A stretch of DNA of 64,000 bases. Source: Parachlamydiales bacterium (GTDB lineage: Bacteria; Chlamydiota; Chlamydiia; Chlamydiales; JAJFMK01). The translations under genes and the position numbers were made by a program. Under the pieces are notes generated by a model that had not been told where the DNA came from, searched no databases, and saw only the letters and a list, made by a program, of their open reading frames with translations. Below are positions 4,119 to 62,804 of this stretch, piece after piece. Location of the stretch: assembly GCA_963765145.1 (NCBI GenBank), contig CAVXVG010000028.1, positions 70,595 through 134,594 on the forward strand, written 5' to 3'. Every line of letters begins with the position of its first letter. The stretch's first letter is position 1.

Positions 4119-6253
4119 TTGCGACCTCTTTGGGGTATTTGATCCGGACGTGGCTAGCGGCCACAAGTGTTTGTACCATCGTCTTCTTCACAATGGCCAT
4201 CTCTTCAAAAGAAAGAGGGCATTCATCAAATTGGTGGTCTTTTTGTTTGGTCTCAATGATCTGATCCATTAAGCAAGAAAGGTTGGCTTCATCTAACCGA
4301 TCAAGCGACCGAGAGGCAGCTTCAATGCCATCTGCCAGCATGATAATGGCAGCTTCTCGACTCTGAGGCTTTGGGCCAGCATAACGGAATAAAGAGACAT
4401 CCCCTTCTCCTACCTCTAAGCCCATTTGATCAAGATACCCTTTGTAAAAATACCAGACCAAGCTTGTCCCATGGTGCTCTTTGATGATATCGATGAAGGG
4501 CTCAGGAAGACCTGCCTTCCTTGCCATTGCAACCCCTTCAGTCACATGCGAAATGATCGCTTGGGCAGACTCTGTGGGCGTTAATAATTTGTGGACATTC
4601 ATCTCACCCATCTGGTTCTCAGTAAAATAGTGAGGCATCACCATTTTTCCAATGTCATGATAAAGGGTTGCCACGCGACAAAACAGACCATTAGCCCCTA
4701 TCGCCAAGGCTGCTGCCTCTGCTAAAGTCCCTACCACAAGTGAATGTTGATAGGTTCCCGGGGCTTCCATCGATAACCGTCTCAATAGAGGATGGCTTGG
4801 ATCCAAGTACTCCATCAACGTGACATCGGTTACAACCTGGAATGTGGTTTCAAAAAGCGGTAACAGACCCAATACAATTACAGACGTGCCAAGAAGAAAC
4901 ACAAAGGCAGAGAACAGATCTGCCAAAATAGAGATGTCAAACACCGTGTTTTCGTAGAGGTGAAAAGCTACGATCACCCAAATACACCCTAAAAAAGCCT
5001 TAAAGGAAACGACAAAAATTTCTTTTCGGTGCTTTAAGCTTTTGGTTTCTAAAATGGCAATCAAAAGAAGCGACGATATTAATCAACATCCCCTGCAGAT
5101 CGAGTGTTTCTGAAATGGTCAACGTGACGGTGATTAAAACGGCCGTAAAGGTGGCAATTTTCGGCCCCATCAAATGACAGGTCAAAATGGCTGCAAGAGG
5201 GACAAACAGTGGGTAAGATAACCATTCATGCAGACGGCCATCAGAGTTAAGCTGCCAAAGGTCGAAAGCGCGAGATAGTATCAACGGAATGATCGACAGC
5301 GTGGTCAGCAAAAAAAGTTGCCGGTTAGAGCGGAATATTTTGGGGTAATTGGTGAAGAAAAAAGAGGCAGAAACAAACGTGATCAAAATGGCCAGGATCA
5401 AACTGCCTAAAATCGTTGTGGGGGCCCACAAATTTCGACTTTCATTCAGTTGCCGCTTCATAGCCAGCAGCATCGTCACGTGGCGGTTCATGACCCGCTC
5501 GCCCTGATCAATGATCCTGTCTCCCGCACCGATCGAGGTGTACTGCTCTTTTACTTCACTTTCTATCTCATAGCGGATCTTCCGCATGAGCACTGTATCT
5601 TCTTCTAATTTCCAAGGCTTTTTACTAAATTCAGACACAACGAAATTGCTGAAAGATTTAGGAACGGGGTGTTCTTGAAAAATCCTGTCAGCTTCTTGCT
5701 GCCAAATATAAGTGGGTAAAAAGAGGGTAGATTGTCCTTGTAATGATTCTAAAGGTTCAAATTGAGAGACATCGACATTTCTTTTCTTCAACATCTCCAA
5801 TGTTCTTTGATCGGTAAAATGGAGCGAGCGTATCCCTCTTTGAAAGGTATCCATTGTGAAATGGAGTTCGCTTAATGAAGCGTCGGGAAGTTCTTTTTTT
5901 AGCTCATCATTTTCGGCAAAGTCATTTTCGATGTCTTTGATTCTTTGACGTATCTCACGCTCTGACAACCGGTAGATTTTTCCTAAATCTCGTACCGCGT
6001 CCAGCCTTTGCAGCTTTGTCGCATCGTGGTCTAAAAACTCGAAATTGGTTTGGGCAACGACATATTTTTTAGCCGGCGTGTCCAACTCAAGCGTTTCGAC
6101 CCTGACCTCTCTAAAATGGAGAGATAAGAAAAGGGCAAGGACAAACAGGACTCCAATCCCCCATTTAATCGGGAGACTTTCATCGAAATAGCCACAAGTC
6201 TTCTGAAAAAGAAGACTAGGCCCAAAGGAACGTTTTACCTCATCACTAGTCAT
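4108..6253 (-). pseudogene. 7TM receptor with intracellular HD hydrolase (PgpH/YqfF-like, candidate c-di-AMP phosphodiesterase), split by a frameshift near 5040-5064
   Basis: The 417-aa ORF carries the extracellular and 7TM part. The 318-aa ORF carries the remaining TM helices plus the HD domain (LYHDIGK). Removing one T from a T4 run restores ...VASLIAILETK... Confidence 0.8.
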
Positions 6254-6302: not shown

Positions 6303-7256
6303 ATGACACAAACTCTCTTAATCACGGGCGCCGCGGGCTATATTGGCTCGTTTGTAAATAAATTATTTTTGGAGAACGGATATCAAACCATTATCCTTGA
6401 CGATCTATCTAAAGGGAAGAAAGAATACGTTGTTGGAGGTGAACTCATCGTCGGCAATTTCGGCGACCGACACCTTTTAAAAGAAGTTTTCAAAAGAAAA
6501 ATTGACGGCGTTCTTCACTTTGCTGCCTTCACTAATGTGGGGGAATCGGTCGAAAAACCGTTTAAATATTACGAAAACAACGTGGTTAACACCCTTGTTT
6601 TGCTAGAAGAGATAGAAAAAGCGGGTGTTGAAAGGCTTATTTTCTCCTCATCGGCTGCCGTTTACGGCCATCCAGAAGAAGAGCCCATCACCGAAAAGGC
6701 ACGGCAACAGCCGATCAACCCCTACGGTGAGACAAAACGGGTCGTTGAAGAGATGATCAGATGGTCCAGTTTTGAGGCCATTTCATTGAGATACTTCAAT
6801 GCCGCCGGCGGCGATCCAGAGGGAAAGCTGCTGTATCGCAACCCAAGCCCGACCAATTTGATTCCGATTTTGCTGAACGGGATTGGGGAAAACAGGCCAT
6901 TTACCCTTTTTGGAGAAGACTATCCAACCGAAGATGGAACCTGCATCCGCGACTATATCCATATTTATGACTTGGCCACTGGCCATCTTTTAGCATGGGA
7001 TGCTTTAAAGGATGGAAAAATGGGGGCTTACAACCTAGGAAACGGCAAAGGTTATTCAGTTTTAGAAGTCGTAGCAGCTGTGGAAAAGGTGACAGGAAAG
7101 AAAGTGAACCTCAAAAAAGGTCCAAGACGTGCCGGCGACCCAGCCATCCTCCTTGCAGATGCCACCAAAGCGCGAAAAGAGCTTCATTGGCAACCTAAAT
7201 ATCCGGCGCTTGAGCAGATGGTCCACGACTCCTGGCTAGGTTACCGCACAACCTAG
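6303..7256 (+). CDS. galE: UDP-glucose 4-epimerase
   Basis: MTQTLLITGAAGYIGS Rossmann start and the PYGETK (YxxxK) motif; full-length similarity pattern to GalE. Confidence 0.9.
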   Translation: MTQTLLITGAAGYIGSFVNKLFLENGYQTIILDDLSKGKKEYVVGGELIVGNFGDRHLLKEVFKRKIDGVLHFAAFTNVGESVEKPFKYYENNVVNTLVLLEEIEKAGVERLIFSSSAAVYGHPEEEPITEKARQQPINPYGETKRVVEEMIRWSSFEAISLRYFNAAGGDPEGKLLYRNPSPTNLIPILLNGIGENRPFTLFGEDYPTEDGTCIRDYIHIYDLATGHLLAWDALKDGKMGAYNLGNGKGYSVLEVVAAVEKVTGKKVNLKKGPRRAGDPAILLADATKARKELHWQPKYPALEQMVHDSWLGYRTT

Positions 7257-7353
7257 TTCGCGAAGCGTTTGGAGTGCTAAACTCCTGTTTAGCTTTGACT
7301 TATCAGTGAAAGTGAAAGCTAAACAGGAGTTTAGCACTCCAAACGCGTTGCGA
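7257..7353. repeat. family-A palindromic element (inner-stem variant 1)
   Basis: ttcgcgaagcgtttggagtgc + gctaaactcctgtttagc + loop + exact reverse complement. It starts directly after the galE stop codon. Confidence 0.9.
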
Positions 7354-7443: not shown

Positions 7444-8569
7444 TTAAAAGTAGTAATCGGCGCCGAGGACGAGGCCGTAAAGGCCCATGTCTCCCCTCAA
7501 AGTATGAGAGACCGGCATGGCCGTTGTACCATCTAAAAAGTCTTCAAGGACGAAGCCGCTGGCATCTCTAGCTATGAGCATATTGAGGCCGGAGAGGAAA
7601 ATATATTCCCACCCTGCCTTGACAATGAGAAAACTCTCGTCGCAATTAAAATCTTTGACCCACTGCAAGCCAATAGCAAGGGTTGCCATCTGCTTTAAGC
7701 TTTTTGGGTTACTTTTAAAGGTCAAATCTTGTGTTAGAGGAGACGAAGCAGCAACTGTTTCTGCAAGGAAAAGATCCTGCCGAAGACTTACGCAAGAAAG
7801 AAGCACTGAGTAGTCAAAATTCCCATAAAGAGACAATCCGCAAAAACCGATATCCCATGTGCTATCGAGTCCAAATTTGATTCCAAAAGCGTCTATTTTG
7901 TTTTTATTGTAAGTACCCACTCGGAGGCTGTCCCCTACCCCCGATGAGACAAGAGCAAAAGCAGTATTGAGTTGCTGTTCGCTCCAAACAAATCTAAAGC
8001 CAGCTCTTGGTGTAAGAGTGATCGATCGATTGATCATTGAGATGCGAGAAAAATCGACGTCGAGCTGGTTATATTGCCATTTCCAATGGCCAGTGGTCGA
8101 ATAGTCTCCATTAAAAAACTCTGAAACATTGTTAAATAGAACAGGAACGATTCCGCCGGCCAAAGGCACTGTTTCCCCCGGATTGATAACAGGAAAATTG
8201 TTCGCGAAGGCATCTGAATGAGAGGCCGTTGTCCAAAAATAGAGGTAAGAAACATTCAAAGCCCACTGATCGCAAGGTAAATTGAAGCCCAAGATTCACA
8301 CGAAAGCCGGAATCCCAATTCAGGCTCGGAGCTTGACGGGTGATGCAGCCTGAAGCACCCGGCGTATAAACGGTTTTCTCTGAAAAATAGTTCTCATCGA
8401 CTGCTGGCTTCATGTAGAGCCATTCAGCTCCGACAACCACTGTCCCAAAAGATTCTACATAACTGACCGGTGGCGGGTAGCCATAATCGTAATAGTAAGG
8501 GATTTCAGCAGCTTGTAACGCTATCTGAGGCAAAATTGCGGCAGCTAAAAGGACTTTTGAGAAGTTCAT
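7444..8569 (-). pseudogene. MOMP-like / Legionella-type beta-barrel outer membrane protein, split by a frameshift near 8285
   Basis: N-terminal signal peptide MNFSKVLLAAAILPQIALQA; alternating beta-strand pattern; C-terminal ...GADYYF. Removing one G from GGG restores ...RVNLGFNLPCDQW... Confidence 0.65.
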
Positions 8570-58397: not shown

Positions 58398-58568
58398 ATG
58401 AACCTACTTTTCACCCTTTGCTTTCTATTGACTGCAGCAACAACAGAGCCGGCAGTTCAAGTTCATCCTGTCAACCCTAAGTGCAACTGCACAGCTGAGT
58501 CTCATTGCGGTTGCGTCGATGGCAAACCATGCCATTGCGGCCAACAAGAGCACCCCGTCTCCACCTAA
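58398..58568 (+). CDS. unannotated 56-aa secreted Cys/His-rich peptide (three CxC pairs)
   Basis: Hand translation: MNLLFTLCFLLTAATTEPAVQVHPVNPKCNCTAESHCGCVDGKPCHCGQQEHPVST*. AAGGAA lies 7 nt upstream, and a family-E hairpin follows immediately. It is below the 60-aa ORF-track cutoff. Confidence 0.5.
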   Translation: MNLLFTLCFLLTAATTEPAVQVHPVNPKCNCTAESHCGCVDGKPCHCGQQEHPVST

Positions 58569-58571
58569 ATT

Positions 58572-58646
58572 ACCCTTGCCCGTGCCCCTGCCCTTGCCCG
58601 AAAAACTCTTTGGCAAAAAATTCGGGCACGGGCACGTGCAGGGGCC
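58572..58646. repeat. family-E hairpin element
   Basis: cccttgcccgtgcccctgcccttgcccgaaaa ... ttcgggcacgggcacgtgcagggg. Confidence 0.85.
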
Positions 58647-58734: not shown

Positions 58735-58917
58735 AAGGGCACTTACTTCTTGATGTGAAAGATTGCAGTTGCTTGGAGACTCCAAACGCTTCGCGTAACT
58801 TAAGAGACCACCTATGACGACCTGGTCCGCCCCGAAAAGATGGTATAATACTCCTCTGAAAAAACGTGTATTTATTGAATAAATACTTTACCATTCCCTC
58901 TCTAAAAGAGAGGATTT

Positions 58918-59968
58918 ATGTCGTTAGTTCCAAATTGTACTTTTTGCCAAAGTTCTTCATCTGAGGTTCAACAGTCCTCTTCTTGTTCACACGATCGAAT
59001 TGACCATTGGCTTGCGACGGCAAAGAGGATGGCTCCTCTGTTTTTCACCTCTTTAGGGACGGGCATAGGCGCAATTATTCTTGGCCGAAGAGTTCATTGG
59101 AGAGGTCATCCATTACGCTTCCTAGCTGCCACCAGTCTTCTTTTCATGCTAGGGCGCGCAAGCTTTGCCTTTGGCAAGGACGTTGTTAGATTAATGGGCT
59201 TAAAGGATGCAGGGGCAGTCCGAGCGATAACAGGAATATTTAACAAAATAAATGGCACAAGCATTGATGCACGTGATGTTCTTTCTCGCCGCGAACAAAG
59301 AAACACTGCTGAAGGGGAGACAATCATCGGCATCTTTATGAAATCATTCAGGGATATGCTTCTAGTTACTCTTTCGAGGCTGCCTTGTGACGAAGCTGAT
59401 AAGGAGCTCATCGCATGGATGCAAGGAAAAATAAAGCTGCTTGATTCGGAAGAGAATTTATCTCACTTTGCTTCATGTTTTTTTAATGCGTTGAAGGAAG
59501 CCGATTCGGATTTATATAGCTTTCTGTCTAAACAAGGGGCTAATTTATTCATGAATCAAGATTTTCGTGAAGCAAAAGGAAAAACTGCTCAATCTAATAA
59601 AACAAGCAGTCACCACTTTCTTAGAAAATGGTGAGACACCTTCTTTTACTTTTGACCAAAAGCTGCGTTTGGCGATGCTATATGTGTTAGAAGACCAAAA
59701 ACATGAAGACAGTGGAAAAGAAGTCATTGCAGCTCTTGCTTCTTTGCAGGATGAATGCAAACAGCCTAACTCCCCACTTTTCCAAGTGGTTAAAGACCAC
59801 TTGGAACAAAATGCAACGACGCGTGAGGATGGAAAAACACTTTCTGATCTCTCGATTTTTAAAATGTTGAGAGATTCACGTTTAGAAGCCGCATTATTTG
59901 CTCTTGTTTGCGAGCACAGAAAAGAACTAGCTATTGCCGCCGGCTTGATGACACCAGCGAATAAATAA
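58918..59968 (+). pseudogene. hypothetical membrane protein with bilobed hydrophobic segment (Inc-like), split at an A5 run (59579-59583)
   Basis: LFFTSLGTGIGAIILG...LRFLAATSLLFMLGRASFAF form paired TM helices. Removing one A joins ...DFREAKGK to LLNLIKQAVTTFLENG... Confidence 0.4.
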
Positions 59969-59993: not shown

Positions 59994-60089
59994 TTCGCAA
60001 AGCGTTTGGAGTGCTAAACTCCTGTTTAGCTTTCACTCTCACGAATAAGTGAAAGCGCAGCAGGAGCTGCGCACTCCAAACGCTTTGCG
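59994..60089. repeat. family-A element, chimeric (left arm variant 1, right arm variant 3)
   Basis: The left inner stem gctaaactcctgtttagc is paired with the right inner stem gcgcagcaggagctgcgc, giving 6 mismatches. An extra half-copy lies at 60139-60163. Confidence 0.85.
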
Positions 60090-60160
60090 GAATAAAAAAA
60101 ACTGTCAACTTCGCTCTTTAGGTTGCCGAAACGCCGCTCGAGCACTCCAAACGCTTCGCG

Positions 60161-62804
60161 TTACTTTTCCGGTAGGTGGTAAAAGACACCATGGTTGGGA
60201 TAGGCAAAGATTTGCAGAGCGGCCTCATGAATGTTGTCTGCAGTGATCAATTTGTCCACACGCCTAGGGTCAAAAAGGGTCGATAAGGGGCCGGCATACA
60301 AGGCGCTCGATACCAATTTGCCTACCCAATAACCATTTTCTTCCTGCCCTTCCCGCTGCTCTTCATGGAAGAATGCTTTTAAATTGGATAGCTCCCTGCT
60401 AGTTATCCCCGCTTCTTTTAGAGCTTTAATCTCTTCAAATACAAGATCGGTCAACAGTTGCCGATCGTGCGGTTGACAGGTAAATTCTACTACGAGATAG
60501 GAAACCTCCAAATAGGGGGCGCATGGAGTATCCAACTTTGTGTATACGCCATAAGTTTTCCCATGGCTCGAGCGCAGCACATTCCACAATCTTTTTTCTA
60601 AAATCTGGCAAACAGCCCTCACAGGAAGAAATGAGTGGTATTGATTGTCAATTTTTTGGAAATCAAAAGGAAATTCTAAATGGCAAGTGGCAAAGGTTTG
60701 TTTTCCCTTCAGATATTCAAACTCCTGGCTTGTTTTGGGGAGGAGAGGAAGGACAGGAACCGTCTCTCCACTTTTTGGTCTCTCTGGCAAAGAACCGATG
60801 TAGCGATTGATCGGATCGACCATCTCCTCCAGATCAAAATCTCCTACTAGAATAAAGGTAAAATCTTGAGGACAGCCGAACAAAGCATTAAAAATCTCTT
60901 TTGCCTTCTCTGGGTCAACCTTTGCTAAGTCTGCTTCTTTAAAGGTGTAATGCCCATCTGTCATCGCATCATTGATCTTTTGCTCAAACTGCTCCTTGGC
61001 AGTTTTCTTTTCTTTCTCTTCCCATTTAGCAAAATAGAGCCACTTTCTTAATGCATCGACTTTGAATTTCGGTTCTTTAAAAAGGGCATGGATTGCATGG
61101 AGGACAGCCGCAACCTCTTTTTTATCCATCGTATACTGGATGGAACGGTAACCTAAGCCCAAGTCGATTTTAGCTCCTGCTTGAGCCCAATGTCTCAACC
61201 CAAAGGCAGCAAAATGGCCACTAGAAATATCAGCGACTGAATATTGGGCAAACCCCCCTTTGGCAACCATGTAAAAAACTACTTTTCCGTCACCAAGTTC
61301 GGTGTTTTTAAGAAGCACTTTGATTCCGTTAGAAAGGGTCCATTCAGACACGCCTGAATGGTCTTCAACATCAATCTCTTCAATATAACCGGCATCATCT
61401 TCTAATTCTTGGATAGAATGCTGATCCAATTTTAGAAAAGGTTTGTCCTTCAATGATTCGTAAATATCAGATTTTGGGGTAAATAAAAAAGCCGTATAGG
61501 ACATGTTAAGAGGCGAAAACTCAAGCCACCTATTCACCTCTTCAAGCGTTAACTCATCTAAAGCAGCTAGAGTTAAGTTGTATTCTTCTTCCTCTGATAA
61601 AAGAGGGTCTTGATGAGTGACAAAGTGGGCAACGAATTGCTCGGCGATATCTTCATGGCCCCTCTTCATTGGTTTCTTCAACAGTTTTTCAAGGCTTTCT
61701 TGTTTTTCCCCAATCCACTCCTCCAATTGGCAAGCAGTAAAGCCTTTTTTATTTAAAGATTTGACGCCTTTTAATAAGGAGTTAATTTCATGCTCAACAT
61801 CCTCTTCGTCAAGAGAAAATCCTGTAACGTATTTATCAACTGAAAGAAGAAGCTCTCGACCGAAACCTTGTAGGCGTGGGCACTTTAAATTTTTCAAATG
61901 CTGGATGAAAAGGGAGGTAGCACATTCTGCAAGTAAGTTGCCTTTGACCCGCTCCTCAGGGCTATCGCAACCAATTGGTTCATAAGGAGCTGAAAACATT
62001 AACCAAAGACCCGAATGATCTAGTTCTGGTTCCACATACAGCACCTCTCGATCAACTTCTGGATACACGACAGCCAAATCAGGTTCTTTGACCTTTTCTT
62101 CGGGGTTACTAAGGGTGCTAAATAGGGTTTTTATTTTCTTTTCTACTTCTCTCACATTCTAGATCTCCCACAATGATGACTGCCATCCGATCGGGCCGAT
62201 ACCATTTTTTATAAAAAGTTCTTAGCGTGTCAGAACTTACTTGCGTGATATTTTCTAGGGTTCCTGAAGGAAAATTGGTCTGCAAAAGAGAACCAGGGAA
62301 TGACTCTTCCATAAATTTCACAGCGACTTGTTCATTTGGAGAGGAAAAGCCACGATGCAGCTCATCTAAAACAACATACCTTTCTTTTTGAATGACTCTA
62401 TCTTCAAGGGTTGCAAAGCCGGCAAAATCCCTTAAAAATAAAAGCGTTTGGTCCAAACTTTCCGGGTGGTTCAAAGGGATGTCTAAATGGTAAACCGTTC
62501 TTTCAAAACCGGTGTAGGCATTTCTCCGCATGCCTCCTAAGGAATCCAAATAACTTTCAAGCACCCCATCTTCAAAATGCTTTGAACCTCGAAAATTCAG
62601 ATGCTCTATAAAATGGGCAATCCCTACTTCATGCGGTTTTTCATAAAGCGACCCGACCTTGACGGCAAGCGTCAATACCGCCCTATCCTTTGGCGTGCTA
62701 TTTTCTTGCACATAGTAAGTAAGCCCATTCTCCAAAGTTCCGTGTCGAACTTCTGTTGCGCAAAGCATTTGTAATGAGATAAATAGGAAGAAAAAGAGCC
62801 GCAT
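60161..62804 (-). pseudogene. secreted M16 family zinc peptidase, paralogue 2, split near 62155
   Basis: Signal peptide and HFIEHLNFRGSKHF. The 228-aa and 664-aa ORFs join if one nt is removed in gaa-t-gtg: ...IIVGDLEVREVEKKIKTLF, compared with VVGDFDGKEVEKKVQNLF in the paralogue. Confidence 0.8.

Follow-up and report, generated by a model that had tools for sequence, protein, structure and literature searches.

The dispersed palindromic elements of about 94 nt in the 64,000-nt stretch of chlamydial DNA analysed here (the window) are, with a probability of about 0.8, REPINs, i.e. inverted doublets of REP units that represent gene-less derivatives of a RAYT element. The full version of this element carries, at the position of the spacer, the gene for a RAYT of ~203 aa, a TnpA-REP-like HUH/Tyr transposase acting on single-stranded DNA. 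Two inverted REP units separated by a short spacer are found in six copies of the window and in ~100 others; the ends are conserved and the spacer is less so, the whole unit folds into a hairpin, and within the window the copies are numerous and extragenic.

Six copies and three remnants in 64 kb

The 13-mer GCGTTTGGAGTGC has 15 matches in the window (both strands, at most 2 mismatches) against 1.28 expected, a number reached in none of 100 shuffles. Twelve of these matches form six exact inverted pairs of the 13-mer and its reverse complement, 82–83 nt apart (7265/7346, 12601/12682, 34400/34481, 43485/43567, 50290/50372, and 60002/60083), and two more are right-end matches, at 58777 and 60142. 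The six full and three half copies listed in an earlier, sequence-only reading of this DNA are thus real. When the flanks are read, the palindrome is seen to reach outward to CGCGAA...TTCGCG, which makes the full element longer than had been stated. All six full copies and all three remnants are intergenic, and four of the six full copies sit between convergent gene ends.

The full copies carry an 18-nt inner segment, called the module below, for which three variants are found, together with a common loop in both orientations, as previously claimed. Copy 1 (7259–7352) has variant-1 modules in both arms and is composed of an outer stem (7259–7277 and 7334–7352), a first REP hairpin (7276–7293), a spacer (7294–7317), and a second REP hairpin (7318–7335). 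Copy 2 (12595–12688) also carries variant 1 in both arms and differs from copy 1 by one spacer base; it lies in the interval from a tRNA-His gene to the 3' terminus of a gene with a Fic domain. Copies 3 (34394–34487) and 4 (43478–43573) carry variant 2, GCTCTACGCCCGTTTAGC. The former lies between a cytidylyltransferase-like gene and a rhomboid gene, and the latter, whose outermost bases are degenerate (CGCGCTA...GCTGCG), between an ABC-F gene and the RNase P RNA. Copy 5 (50284–50378) carries variant 3, GCGCAGCTCCTGCTGCGC, in both arms. Finally, copy 6 (59996–60089) is a chimera with a variant-1 left module and a variant-3 right module. The claim that, for every variant, the other arm carries the exact reverse complement therefore holds for the other window copies but fails for copy 6, which has six arm-to-arm mismatches. 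Each of its two modules is nevertheless self-paired at 7 of 7 positions, and its outer bases are compensated (CGCAAA...TTTGCG). A gathering-threshold scan of the whole window with Rfam 15 yielded only a class A RNase P RNA (44339–44702, minus strand, 223 bits) and the tRNA-His (12432–12505, minus strand), each with an element in the adjoining intergenic DNA.

The three supposed half copies are of two sorts. A right-end singlet, GCTCGAGCACTCCAAACGCTTCGCG, at 60136–60160 abuts the stop codon of a minus-strand M16-peptidase gene, and a degenerate right-end singlet, GCTTAGCTCCAAACGCTAACGCG, occupies 2154–2176. The remnant at 58771–58795 consists of the two outer arms, GCTTGGAG and ACTCCAAACGCTTCGCG, joined to each other, with both modules and the spacer gone, and may have been left by excision or by a deletion of the interior. 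A further claim, that copies begin 0–13 nt past stop codons, applies to copies 1 and 3, which follow real genes ending at 7256 and 34387, and to the singlet at the stop codon at 60161. It does not apply to copies 4 and 5, for which the closest gene on the upstream side ends ~166 and ~360 nt away, nor to copy 2, for which the adjoining ORF overlaps the tRNA-His and is probably spurious.

Other repeats are present in the window. At 49949–50037, 250 nt upstream of copy 5, there is a palindrome of different sequence, with a 9-nt loop and arms of 40 nt that are 95% complementary, which looks like a second palindromic element family. Inverted repeats of hexamer runs (GCCCTT / AAGGGC) occur at 23256–23362, 27959–28162, and 58565–58645, the one at 27959 having up to ~15 units on one side. 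Two further repeat families, both intergenic, are represented by nested inverted repeats with arms of 33–37 nt (30246–30412) and by repeated AGTATCCCGACACAT palindromes (14443–14622).

The genomic context allows a comparison with close relatives. The Lon protease encoded at 31452–33881 has relatives at 97% and 90% identity, and the proteins of Parachlamydiaceae, Criblamydia, and Neochlamydia are at ~73%; with a Legionella-OMP-like protein, also encoded in the window, this assigns the DNA to a lineage of Chlamydiota that has not been cultured. An exact-sequence look-up of the GalE-like protein gave no match. Orthologous contigs of 10–22 kb, at ~92% and 76% nucleotide identity, contain no element where the window has two copies. 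At the site of copy 3, the cytidylyltransferase-like and rhomboid genes of the 76% relative overlap by 4 nt, with no element. Comparison with the relatives at copy 3 yielded no clean empty site, as they are either too diverged or have other sequence at the junction. The element-free relatives and the single-base difference between copies 1 and 2 fit a recent gain of the element.

Self-paired modules under constant ends

Species-representative genomes were scanned for both termini 40–70 nt apart, and at least 88 loci were obtained. The hosts among the matches listed are MAGs of Verrucomicrobiota (several of them Limisphaerales), Chlamydiota, and Acidobacteriota (Blastocatellia). Two host MAGs are labelled Heliobacteriaceae and Bifidobacteriaceae; these labels are probably wrong, since the modules match acidobacterial and verrucomicrobial copies, respectively. 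A common plan is observed in ~100 copies from ~20 genomes: CGCGAA-GCGTTTGGAGTGC-[module]-TTT-[spacer of 8–30 nt]-AAA-[module]-GCACTCCAAACGC-TTCGCG. One REP unit is composed of the conserved foot CGCGAAGCGTTTGGAGT, a hairpin of 7–8 bp with a 4-nt loop, and GCTTT. The modules are lineage-specific: a chlamydial MAG has, for instance, GCGAAAGYCCTCTTTCGC, a verrucomicrobial MAG GCGCCGGCCCCAGCCGGCGC, and the window GCTAAACTCCTGTTTAGC. The spacers are hypervariable in a Limisphaerales MAG and conserved within the window.

A feature that the sequence-only reading had not noticed is that each 18-nt inner stem is itself a hairpin, with 7 bp and a 4-nt loop (e.g. GCTAAAC-TCCT-GTTTAGC). Across genomes, the module is nearly always its own hairpin of 7–8 bp, closed by GC...GC and with a 4-nt loop, and among 77 distinct modules the share that forms at least 6 pairs is 91%, whereas it is 30% after shuffling. 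Covariation was counted in a gap-free alignment of 86 distinct 18-nt modules that follow a strict pattern and come from many genomes, with 500 shuffles as controls. Standard pairs fill 93.9% of the cells, against 75.1 ± 1.0% in the shuffles, and cells with double changes number 124 against 27. The covariation score is 0.534 against 0.167; for neither the pairs nor the score did any of the 500 shuffles reach as high. Compensatory changes are found at 5 of the 7 module pairs, and slid controls are far lower. Only 7 of the 602 cells hold a G-T pair, consistent with a need for folding on both DNA strands.

Pairing between the arms is another matter. Among 103 distinct copies there are 49 in which the left module and the complement of the right one disagree at 4 or more positions, and in 41 of these 49 both modules still have at least 6 pairs. 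Chimeric copies of this kind show that arm-to-arm pairing is not required, and such pairing of the modules is dispensable. The "compensated arms" are a by-product, because a self-complementary module and its reverse complement differ in the loop only; the arms look perfectly compensated because one self-complementary module is usually the source of both. The sequence-only reading was right that a hairpin is maintained, but the covarying unit is the small hairpin inside each arm, i.e. the REP unit, and not the pairing of one arm with the other. Its three window variants are three lineages copied as units, plus one chimera, rather than independent events, and the real evidence for covariation comes from the other genomes. 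Variant 2 of the window counts against the REP-unit reading: in copy 3 it forms 5 of 7 pairs within the arm and is perfectly complementary between the arms. Folded as single-stranded DNA, copy 1 adopts a long hairpin (-45.6 kcal/mol, z = -13.7), and for copy 6 the minimum-energy fold is a four-way 'clover' (-40.2 kcal/mol) composed of the outer stem, the two module hairpins, and a central stem-loop.

Two further observations concern the spacer and the flanks in other genomes. In one Limisphaerales MAG, two loci on different contigs (L010 4556–4641 and L038 5306–5391) have identical arms and ~60–75 nt of identical asymmetric flanks, and the 16-nt spacer of one is the reverse complement of the other, a flip/flop of the loop. 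At loci of the Chlamydiae MAG JABDDS (e.g. L039 7336–7479, L048 98–231, and L004), the palindrome extends 26–34 nt past CGCGAA on both sides. These flanks are of few recurrent types (e.g. ACCACGTTTCAACATTTTTCTGTTGCTA), and the elements are embedded in longer composite repeats. Insertion into pre-existing hairpins was considered for the extended flanks and rejected, as they belong to longer, genome-specific composite repeats.

Could a passive DNA process account for the arms? In E. coli, quasipalindromes are known to be corrected by template switching, and such hairpin-templated correction during replication would need neither selection nor a dedicated enzyme. The arms are indeed perfect over 35–44 nt in 5 of the 6 window copies, even the outermost bases of copy 6 are compensated, and the loop is flipped between identical arms and flanks in the Limisphaerales pair. 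However, the process leaves unexplained the dispersal of the element, the constancy of its ends across phyla, and its association with RAYT genes, and the arm differences at 4 or more positions in about half of the distinct copies have gone uncorrected. As a full account it is unlikely. Hairpin-templated arm correction is possible but not needed as an explanation; template-switch correction may contribute to the homogenisation of arms inside a mobile element.

Another possibility is a host-selected RNA hairpin serving in transcription termination or in stabilisation of mRNA 3' ends, the covariation then reflecting selection on an RNA stem. The intergenic position of all six copies, four of them between convergent gene ends, would suit such a role, as would the start of two copies 1–6 nt past a stop codon and the great stability of the long hairpin. 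A scan of the consensus also calls each module hairpin with its TTT terminator-like, on both strands, and secondary effects of this sort are reported for E. coli REPs. Against these points, a U-tract (5 or more T among 6 bases, no farther than 18 nt from one of the ends) accompanies only 2 of 101 copies, the element is symmetric and so has no preferred transcribed strand, and the scarcity of G-T pairs is as expected if both DNA strands fold. The element is also missing at the same gene ends in close relatives, and in 74 of 80 loci selected by protein it is a transposase gene that these ends enclose. An RNA function as the reason for the repeats is thus improbable, and the terminator or stabiliser proposed earlier is not supported, although a secondary effect of the elements on transcripts is possible. 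Permissive Rfam scans of two copies gave only generic miRNA-precursor hairpin models, far below threshold. Integron attC sites were likewise discarded, given that the copies are dispersed among housekeeping genes with no cassette arrays and that the ends do not fit GTTRRRY.

A RAYT gene between the repeat ends

The sequence-only reading had advised a search for a REP-associated RAYT or IS200-type transposase. Such a search finds, in related genomes, a RAYT-like gene bracketed by exactly these ends, but none in the window. The ORFs of the element-carrying loci were searched with E. coli TnpA-REP and IS608 TnpA sequences as queries, and RAYT-like ORFs directly adjoin elements at three loci from two phyla (L027, L030, and L073). 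The encoded proteins are ~203 aa long and share 64–70% identity with one another. They carry the HUH motif NH(Y/H)HFV and the tyrosine motif YVHQN(P/A)VKHGL, i.e. the HUH and Y---N(P) signatures, with the catalytic tyrosine, of TnpA-REP proteins. In the RAYT alignment, H91, H93, Y152, and N156 are invariant; their counterparts in 4ER8 belong to the motifs HMH and YIYINP. This structure of E. coli TnpA-REP is the best and only real match in the PDB (E = 1.4e-6), and the Pfam family Y1_Tnp scores just under its cut-off (E = 2e-4, 21.8 bits against 23). The family is large: a cut-off of E <= 1e-10 gives 6,901 protein clusters, most of which bear the name 'putative transposase'; a single JGI record reads 'REP-associated tyrosine transposase'. 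Many homologues are on contigs of ~1 kb, and some of these contigs start or stop within the repeat.

An independent test of the association used 80 RAYT loci from metagenomes, picked by protein patterns alone. The 13-mer (at most 2 mismatches) is present upstream within 400 bp in 55 of them, downstream within 300 bp in 49, and on both sides in 43. With a looser core (TGGAGTGC, hairpin, GCTTT), an element end is found on both sides in the 74 loci mentioned above. The RAYT gene is located inside a left–right pair of ends, at the spacer position, in 31 of the 80 loci, and a complete mini-element stands on each side of it in 23. The density of the exact 8-mer core is 5.2 per kb within 320 bp of the RAYT gene and 0.24 per kb farther out, a 22-fold difference. 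A locus with the gene inside the element, L107, reads CGCGAA-GCGTTTGGAGTGC-GGTGCTTCAGCACC-GCTTT...[RAYT]...AAAGC-GGTGCTGAAGCACC-GCACTCCAAACGC-TTCGCG. The element ends vary with the lineage of the RAYT protein, and do so symmetrically, one clade having GCGTCTGGACTGC and a clade of acidobacterial type only TTTGGAGTGC.

In Chlamydiota, the link to RAYT is one of DNA-element homology only, since no RAYT homologue was found in the 64-kb window or in ~220 kb (28 loci) from two other element-carrying chlamydial MAGs. The window ORF at 58918–59634, situated between element remnants, was considered as a partner and rejected, being membrane-protein-like with no Pfam match and no HUH/Tyr motif. This ORF and the adjacent one at 59567–59968 are in different frames, with no Pfam match and a hydrophobic N-terminal part, and together (58918–59968) they may represent a frameshifted chlamydial membrane-protein gene. 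Two RAYT matches in Logan assemblies were also dismissed as chlamydial RAYTs, as their contigs are GC-rich and of verrucomicrobial type. Among plasmid sequences, RAYT homologues are distant (30% identity at best), and the element has no match at the DNA level.

Other transposase-like genes and arrays were encountered near the elements. A canonical IS200-type TnpA (Pfam Y1_Tnp, E = 2.9e-24) is encoded at L056 7315–7767, and a variant element end (GCGTATGCAGTGC plus GGCAGCTTGCTGGCGC) occurs at 7966, 200 nt from it. On the verrucomicrobial contig of L073, a second, different RAYT-like ORF (4436–4942, 168 aa) has no Pfam match and matches E. coli TnpA-REP with E = 1.7e-7. Tandem arrays of elements with a period of ~128–148 nt start directly 3' of RAYT genes at L097 (1438–1680 and 3486–3870) and L121 (1347–1950).

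An ordinary MITE, whose terminal inverted repeats would be moved by a DDE-type transposase encoded elsewhere, would also be small, intergenic, and dispersed, with conserved inverted ends, here of 13–19 nt. Yet direct target-site duplications are absent from the borders of all six window copies and of the others inspected, and all-against-all clustering of the ORFs near ~100 copies revealed no recurrent transposase, DDE-type or other, beyond the three RAYT ORFs, the largest cluster being spurious ORFs that read through the repeat. The sole gene consistently bracketed by the ends is the Y1/HUH RAYT. A MITE of this type is accordingly very improbable.

How REPINs of this RAYT would move can be proposed by analogy with E. 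coli TnpA-REP and with IS200/IS605 (PMC3116915, PMC3479197). In single-stranded DNA, each arm would fold into its own small hairpin, giving the 'clover' form. A RAYT dimer, presumably encoded in the window's own genome for the copies described here, would recognise the shape of the hairpin together with the conserved foot, and would cleave and rejoin the DNA by a chemistry like that of these relatives; the doublet would hence be copied as a single unit. Chimeras could arise by recombination or by joining of the ends of neighbouring elements. Under this scheme, the ends would be constant because they are the recognition sequence of the protein, the stems would be free to vary as long as they stay paired, and the spacer would be unconstrained. 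Singlet remnants, chimeras, and the lack of target-site duplication would also be expected.

Known relatives and wider meaning

REPINs were described as having invariant ends, a variable spacer, compensatory changes, and two alternative folds, hairpin and 'clover', the latter proposed for Pseudomonas REPINs as the substrate of RAYT (Bertels & Rainey 2011, PMC3116915). The present elements resemble them in all these respects, as well as in their inverted REP units, singlet remnants, tandem clusters, extragenic location, and flanking RAYT gene. They depart from the described REPINs in that the RAYT gene can lie inside the doublet in the other genomes, with none seen in the window. Their sequence is unrelated to that of Pseudomonas and E. 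coli REPs, and the GT[AG]G tag is missing. This tag at the foot of the REP hairpin is canonical (PMC3733652, PMC6006769). Neither GT[AG]G nor CGTC is present at the foot of the stem-loop, where ...TTTGGAGT is followed by a stem starting with GC (GGAGT-GC), and GTAG is found only outside the element, in one chlamydial MAG. The elements are therefore atypical REPs. REPs generally differ between species, whereas the foot of this family, unusually long with up to 19 nt, is identical across Verrucomicrobiota, Acidobacteriota, and Chlamydiota.

Several families of Y1 transposases offer further points of comparison. TIRYT/TIRtron elements (Di Nocera et al. 2013, PMC3733652) are RAYT-like genes flanked by long inverted repeats, some of them double-palindromic, and one group of them is from Acidobacteria. 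Likened by that description only, the present elements share with them a Y1 transposase between inverted repeats with self-complementary tracts, acidobacterial hosts, and repeats that additionally occur scattered, as families of moderate abundance and often in dimeric form. For TnpA-REP proteins, Quentin et al. (2018, PMC6006769) remark on 'closely related sequences in unrelated phyla'. Judged from motif signatures alone, the protein is like subclass 2.8, within class 2, of that work, with NHYH, W[YH], and Y---N(P) motifs, a length of ~200 aa, and a proline-rich N-terminus. That subclass, however, is from Cyanobacteria and goes with canonical GT[AG]G REPs, and the tyrosine motif here is often YVHQNA instead of ending in NP. 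With IS200/IS605 elements (IS608) and PATEs, the present family shares a Y1 HUH enzyme, end hairpins recognised on single-stranded DNA, the lack of target duplication, and gene-less derivatives. By contrast, the ends of IS200/IS605 are not mutual inverted repeats, and the protein found here aligns with TnpA-REP (4ER8) and not with IS200 TnpA. Finally, an analogy can be drawn with the T-shaped inverted terminal repeat of AAV, which likewise combines an outer stem, two inner palindromes, an HUH nuclease, and an asymmetric centre found in both orientations (flip/flop). The present element is a repeat of bacterial chromosomes and has a third stem-loop at its centre, and no relationship of sequence or evolution is claimed.

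REPINs as a kind are known, but a 13-mer family with nearly identical ends in three phyla appears not to have been described previously. A text search of 8 million papers for the 13-mer GCGTTTGGAGTGC met only unrelated primers, and Chlamydiota hosts of such an element did not turn up in the literature searched either. Unusually, all three phyla have the 13–19-nt foot in identical form, for the most part in peat and soil MAGs, and this prompts the question whether the element has spread horizontally, also into a lineage of obligate intracellular bacteria. It is tentatively suggested, as a rather doubtful extension of the REPIN reading, that a single REPIN–RAYT lineage with a near-invariant 19-nt foot, CGCGAAGCGTTTGGAGTGC, is common to Verrucomicrobiota, Acidobacteriota, and obligately intracellular Chlamydiota of the same peat and soil habitats, which would imply horizontal spread across phyla. 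The RAYT inside the doublet might then be the autonomous ancestral form that links IS200-like elements to REPINs. In a sharper variant of this suggestion, the chlamydial genome would have actively expanding REPINs and no RAYT of its own.

At a practical level, TGGAGTGC followed by a 7–8-bp hairpin and GCTTT, in inverted pairs, provides an annotation signature that marks the large RAYT clade described above and a repeat that breaks many metagenome assemblies. The many natural stem variants under one constant foot constitute a ready-made specificity series for the study of REPINs, and the loci with the transposase still inside the doublet are a further resource for it. For the uncultured chlamydial genome, a conspicuous repeat family is explained as mobile DNA and not as regulatory RNA. 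REPIN–RAYT systems are usually described as strictly vertically inherited, and the distribution of this family over three phyla tests that claim.
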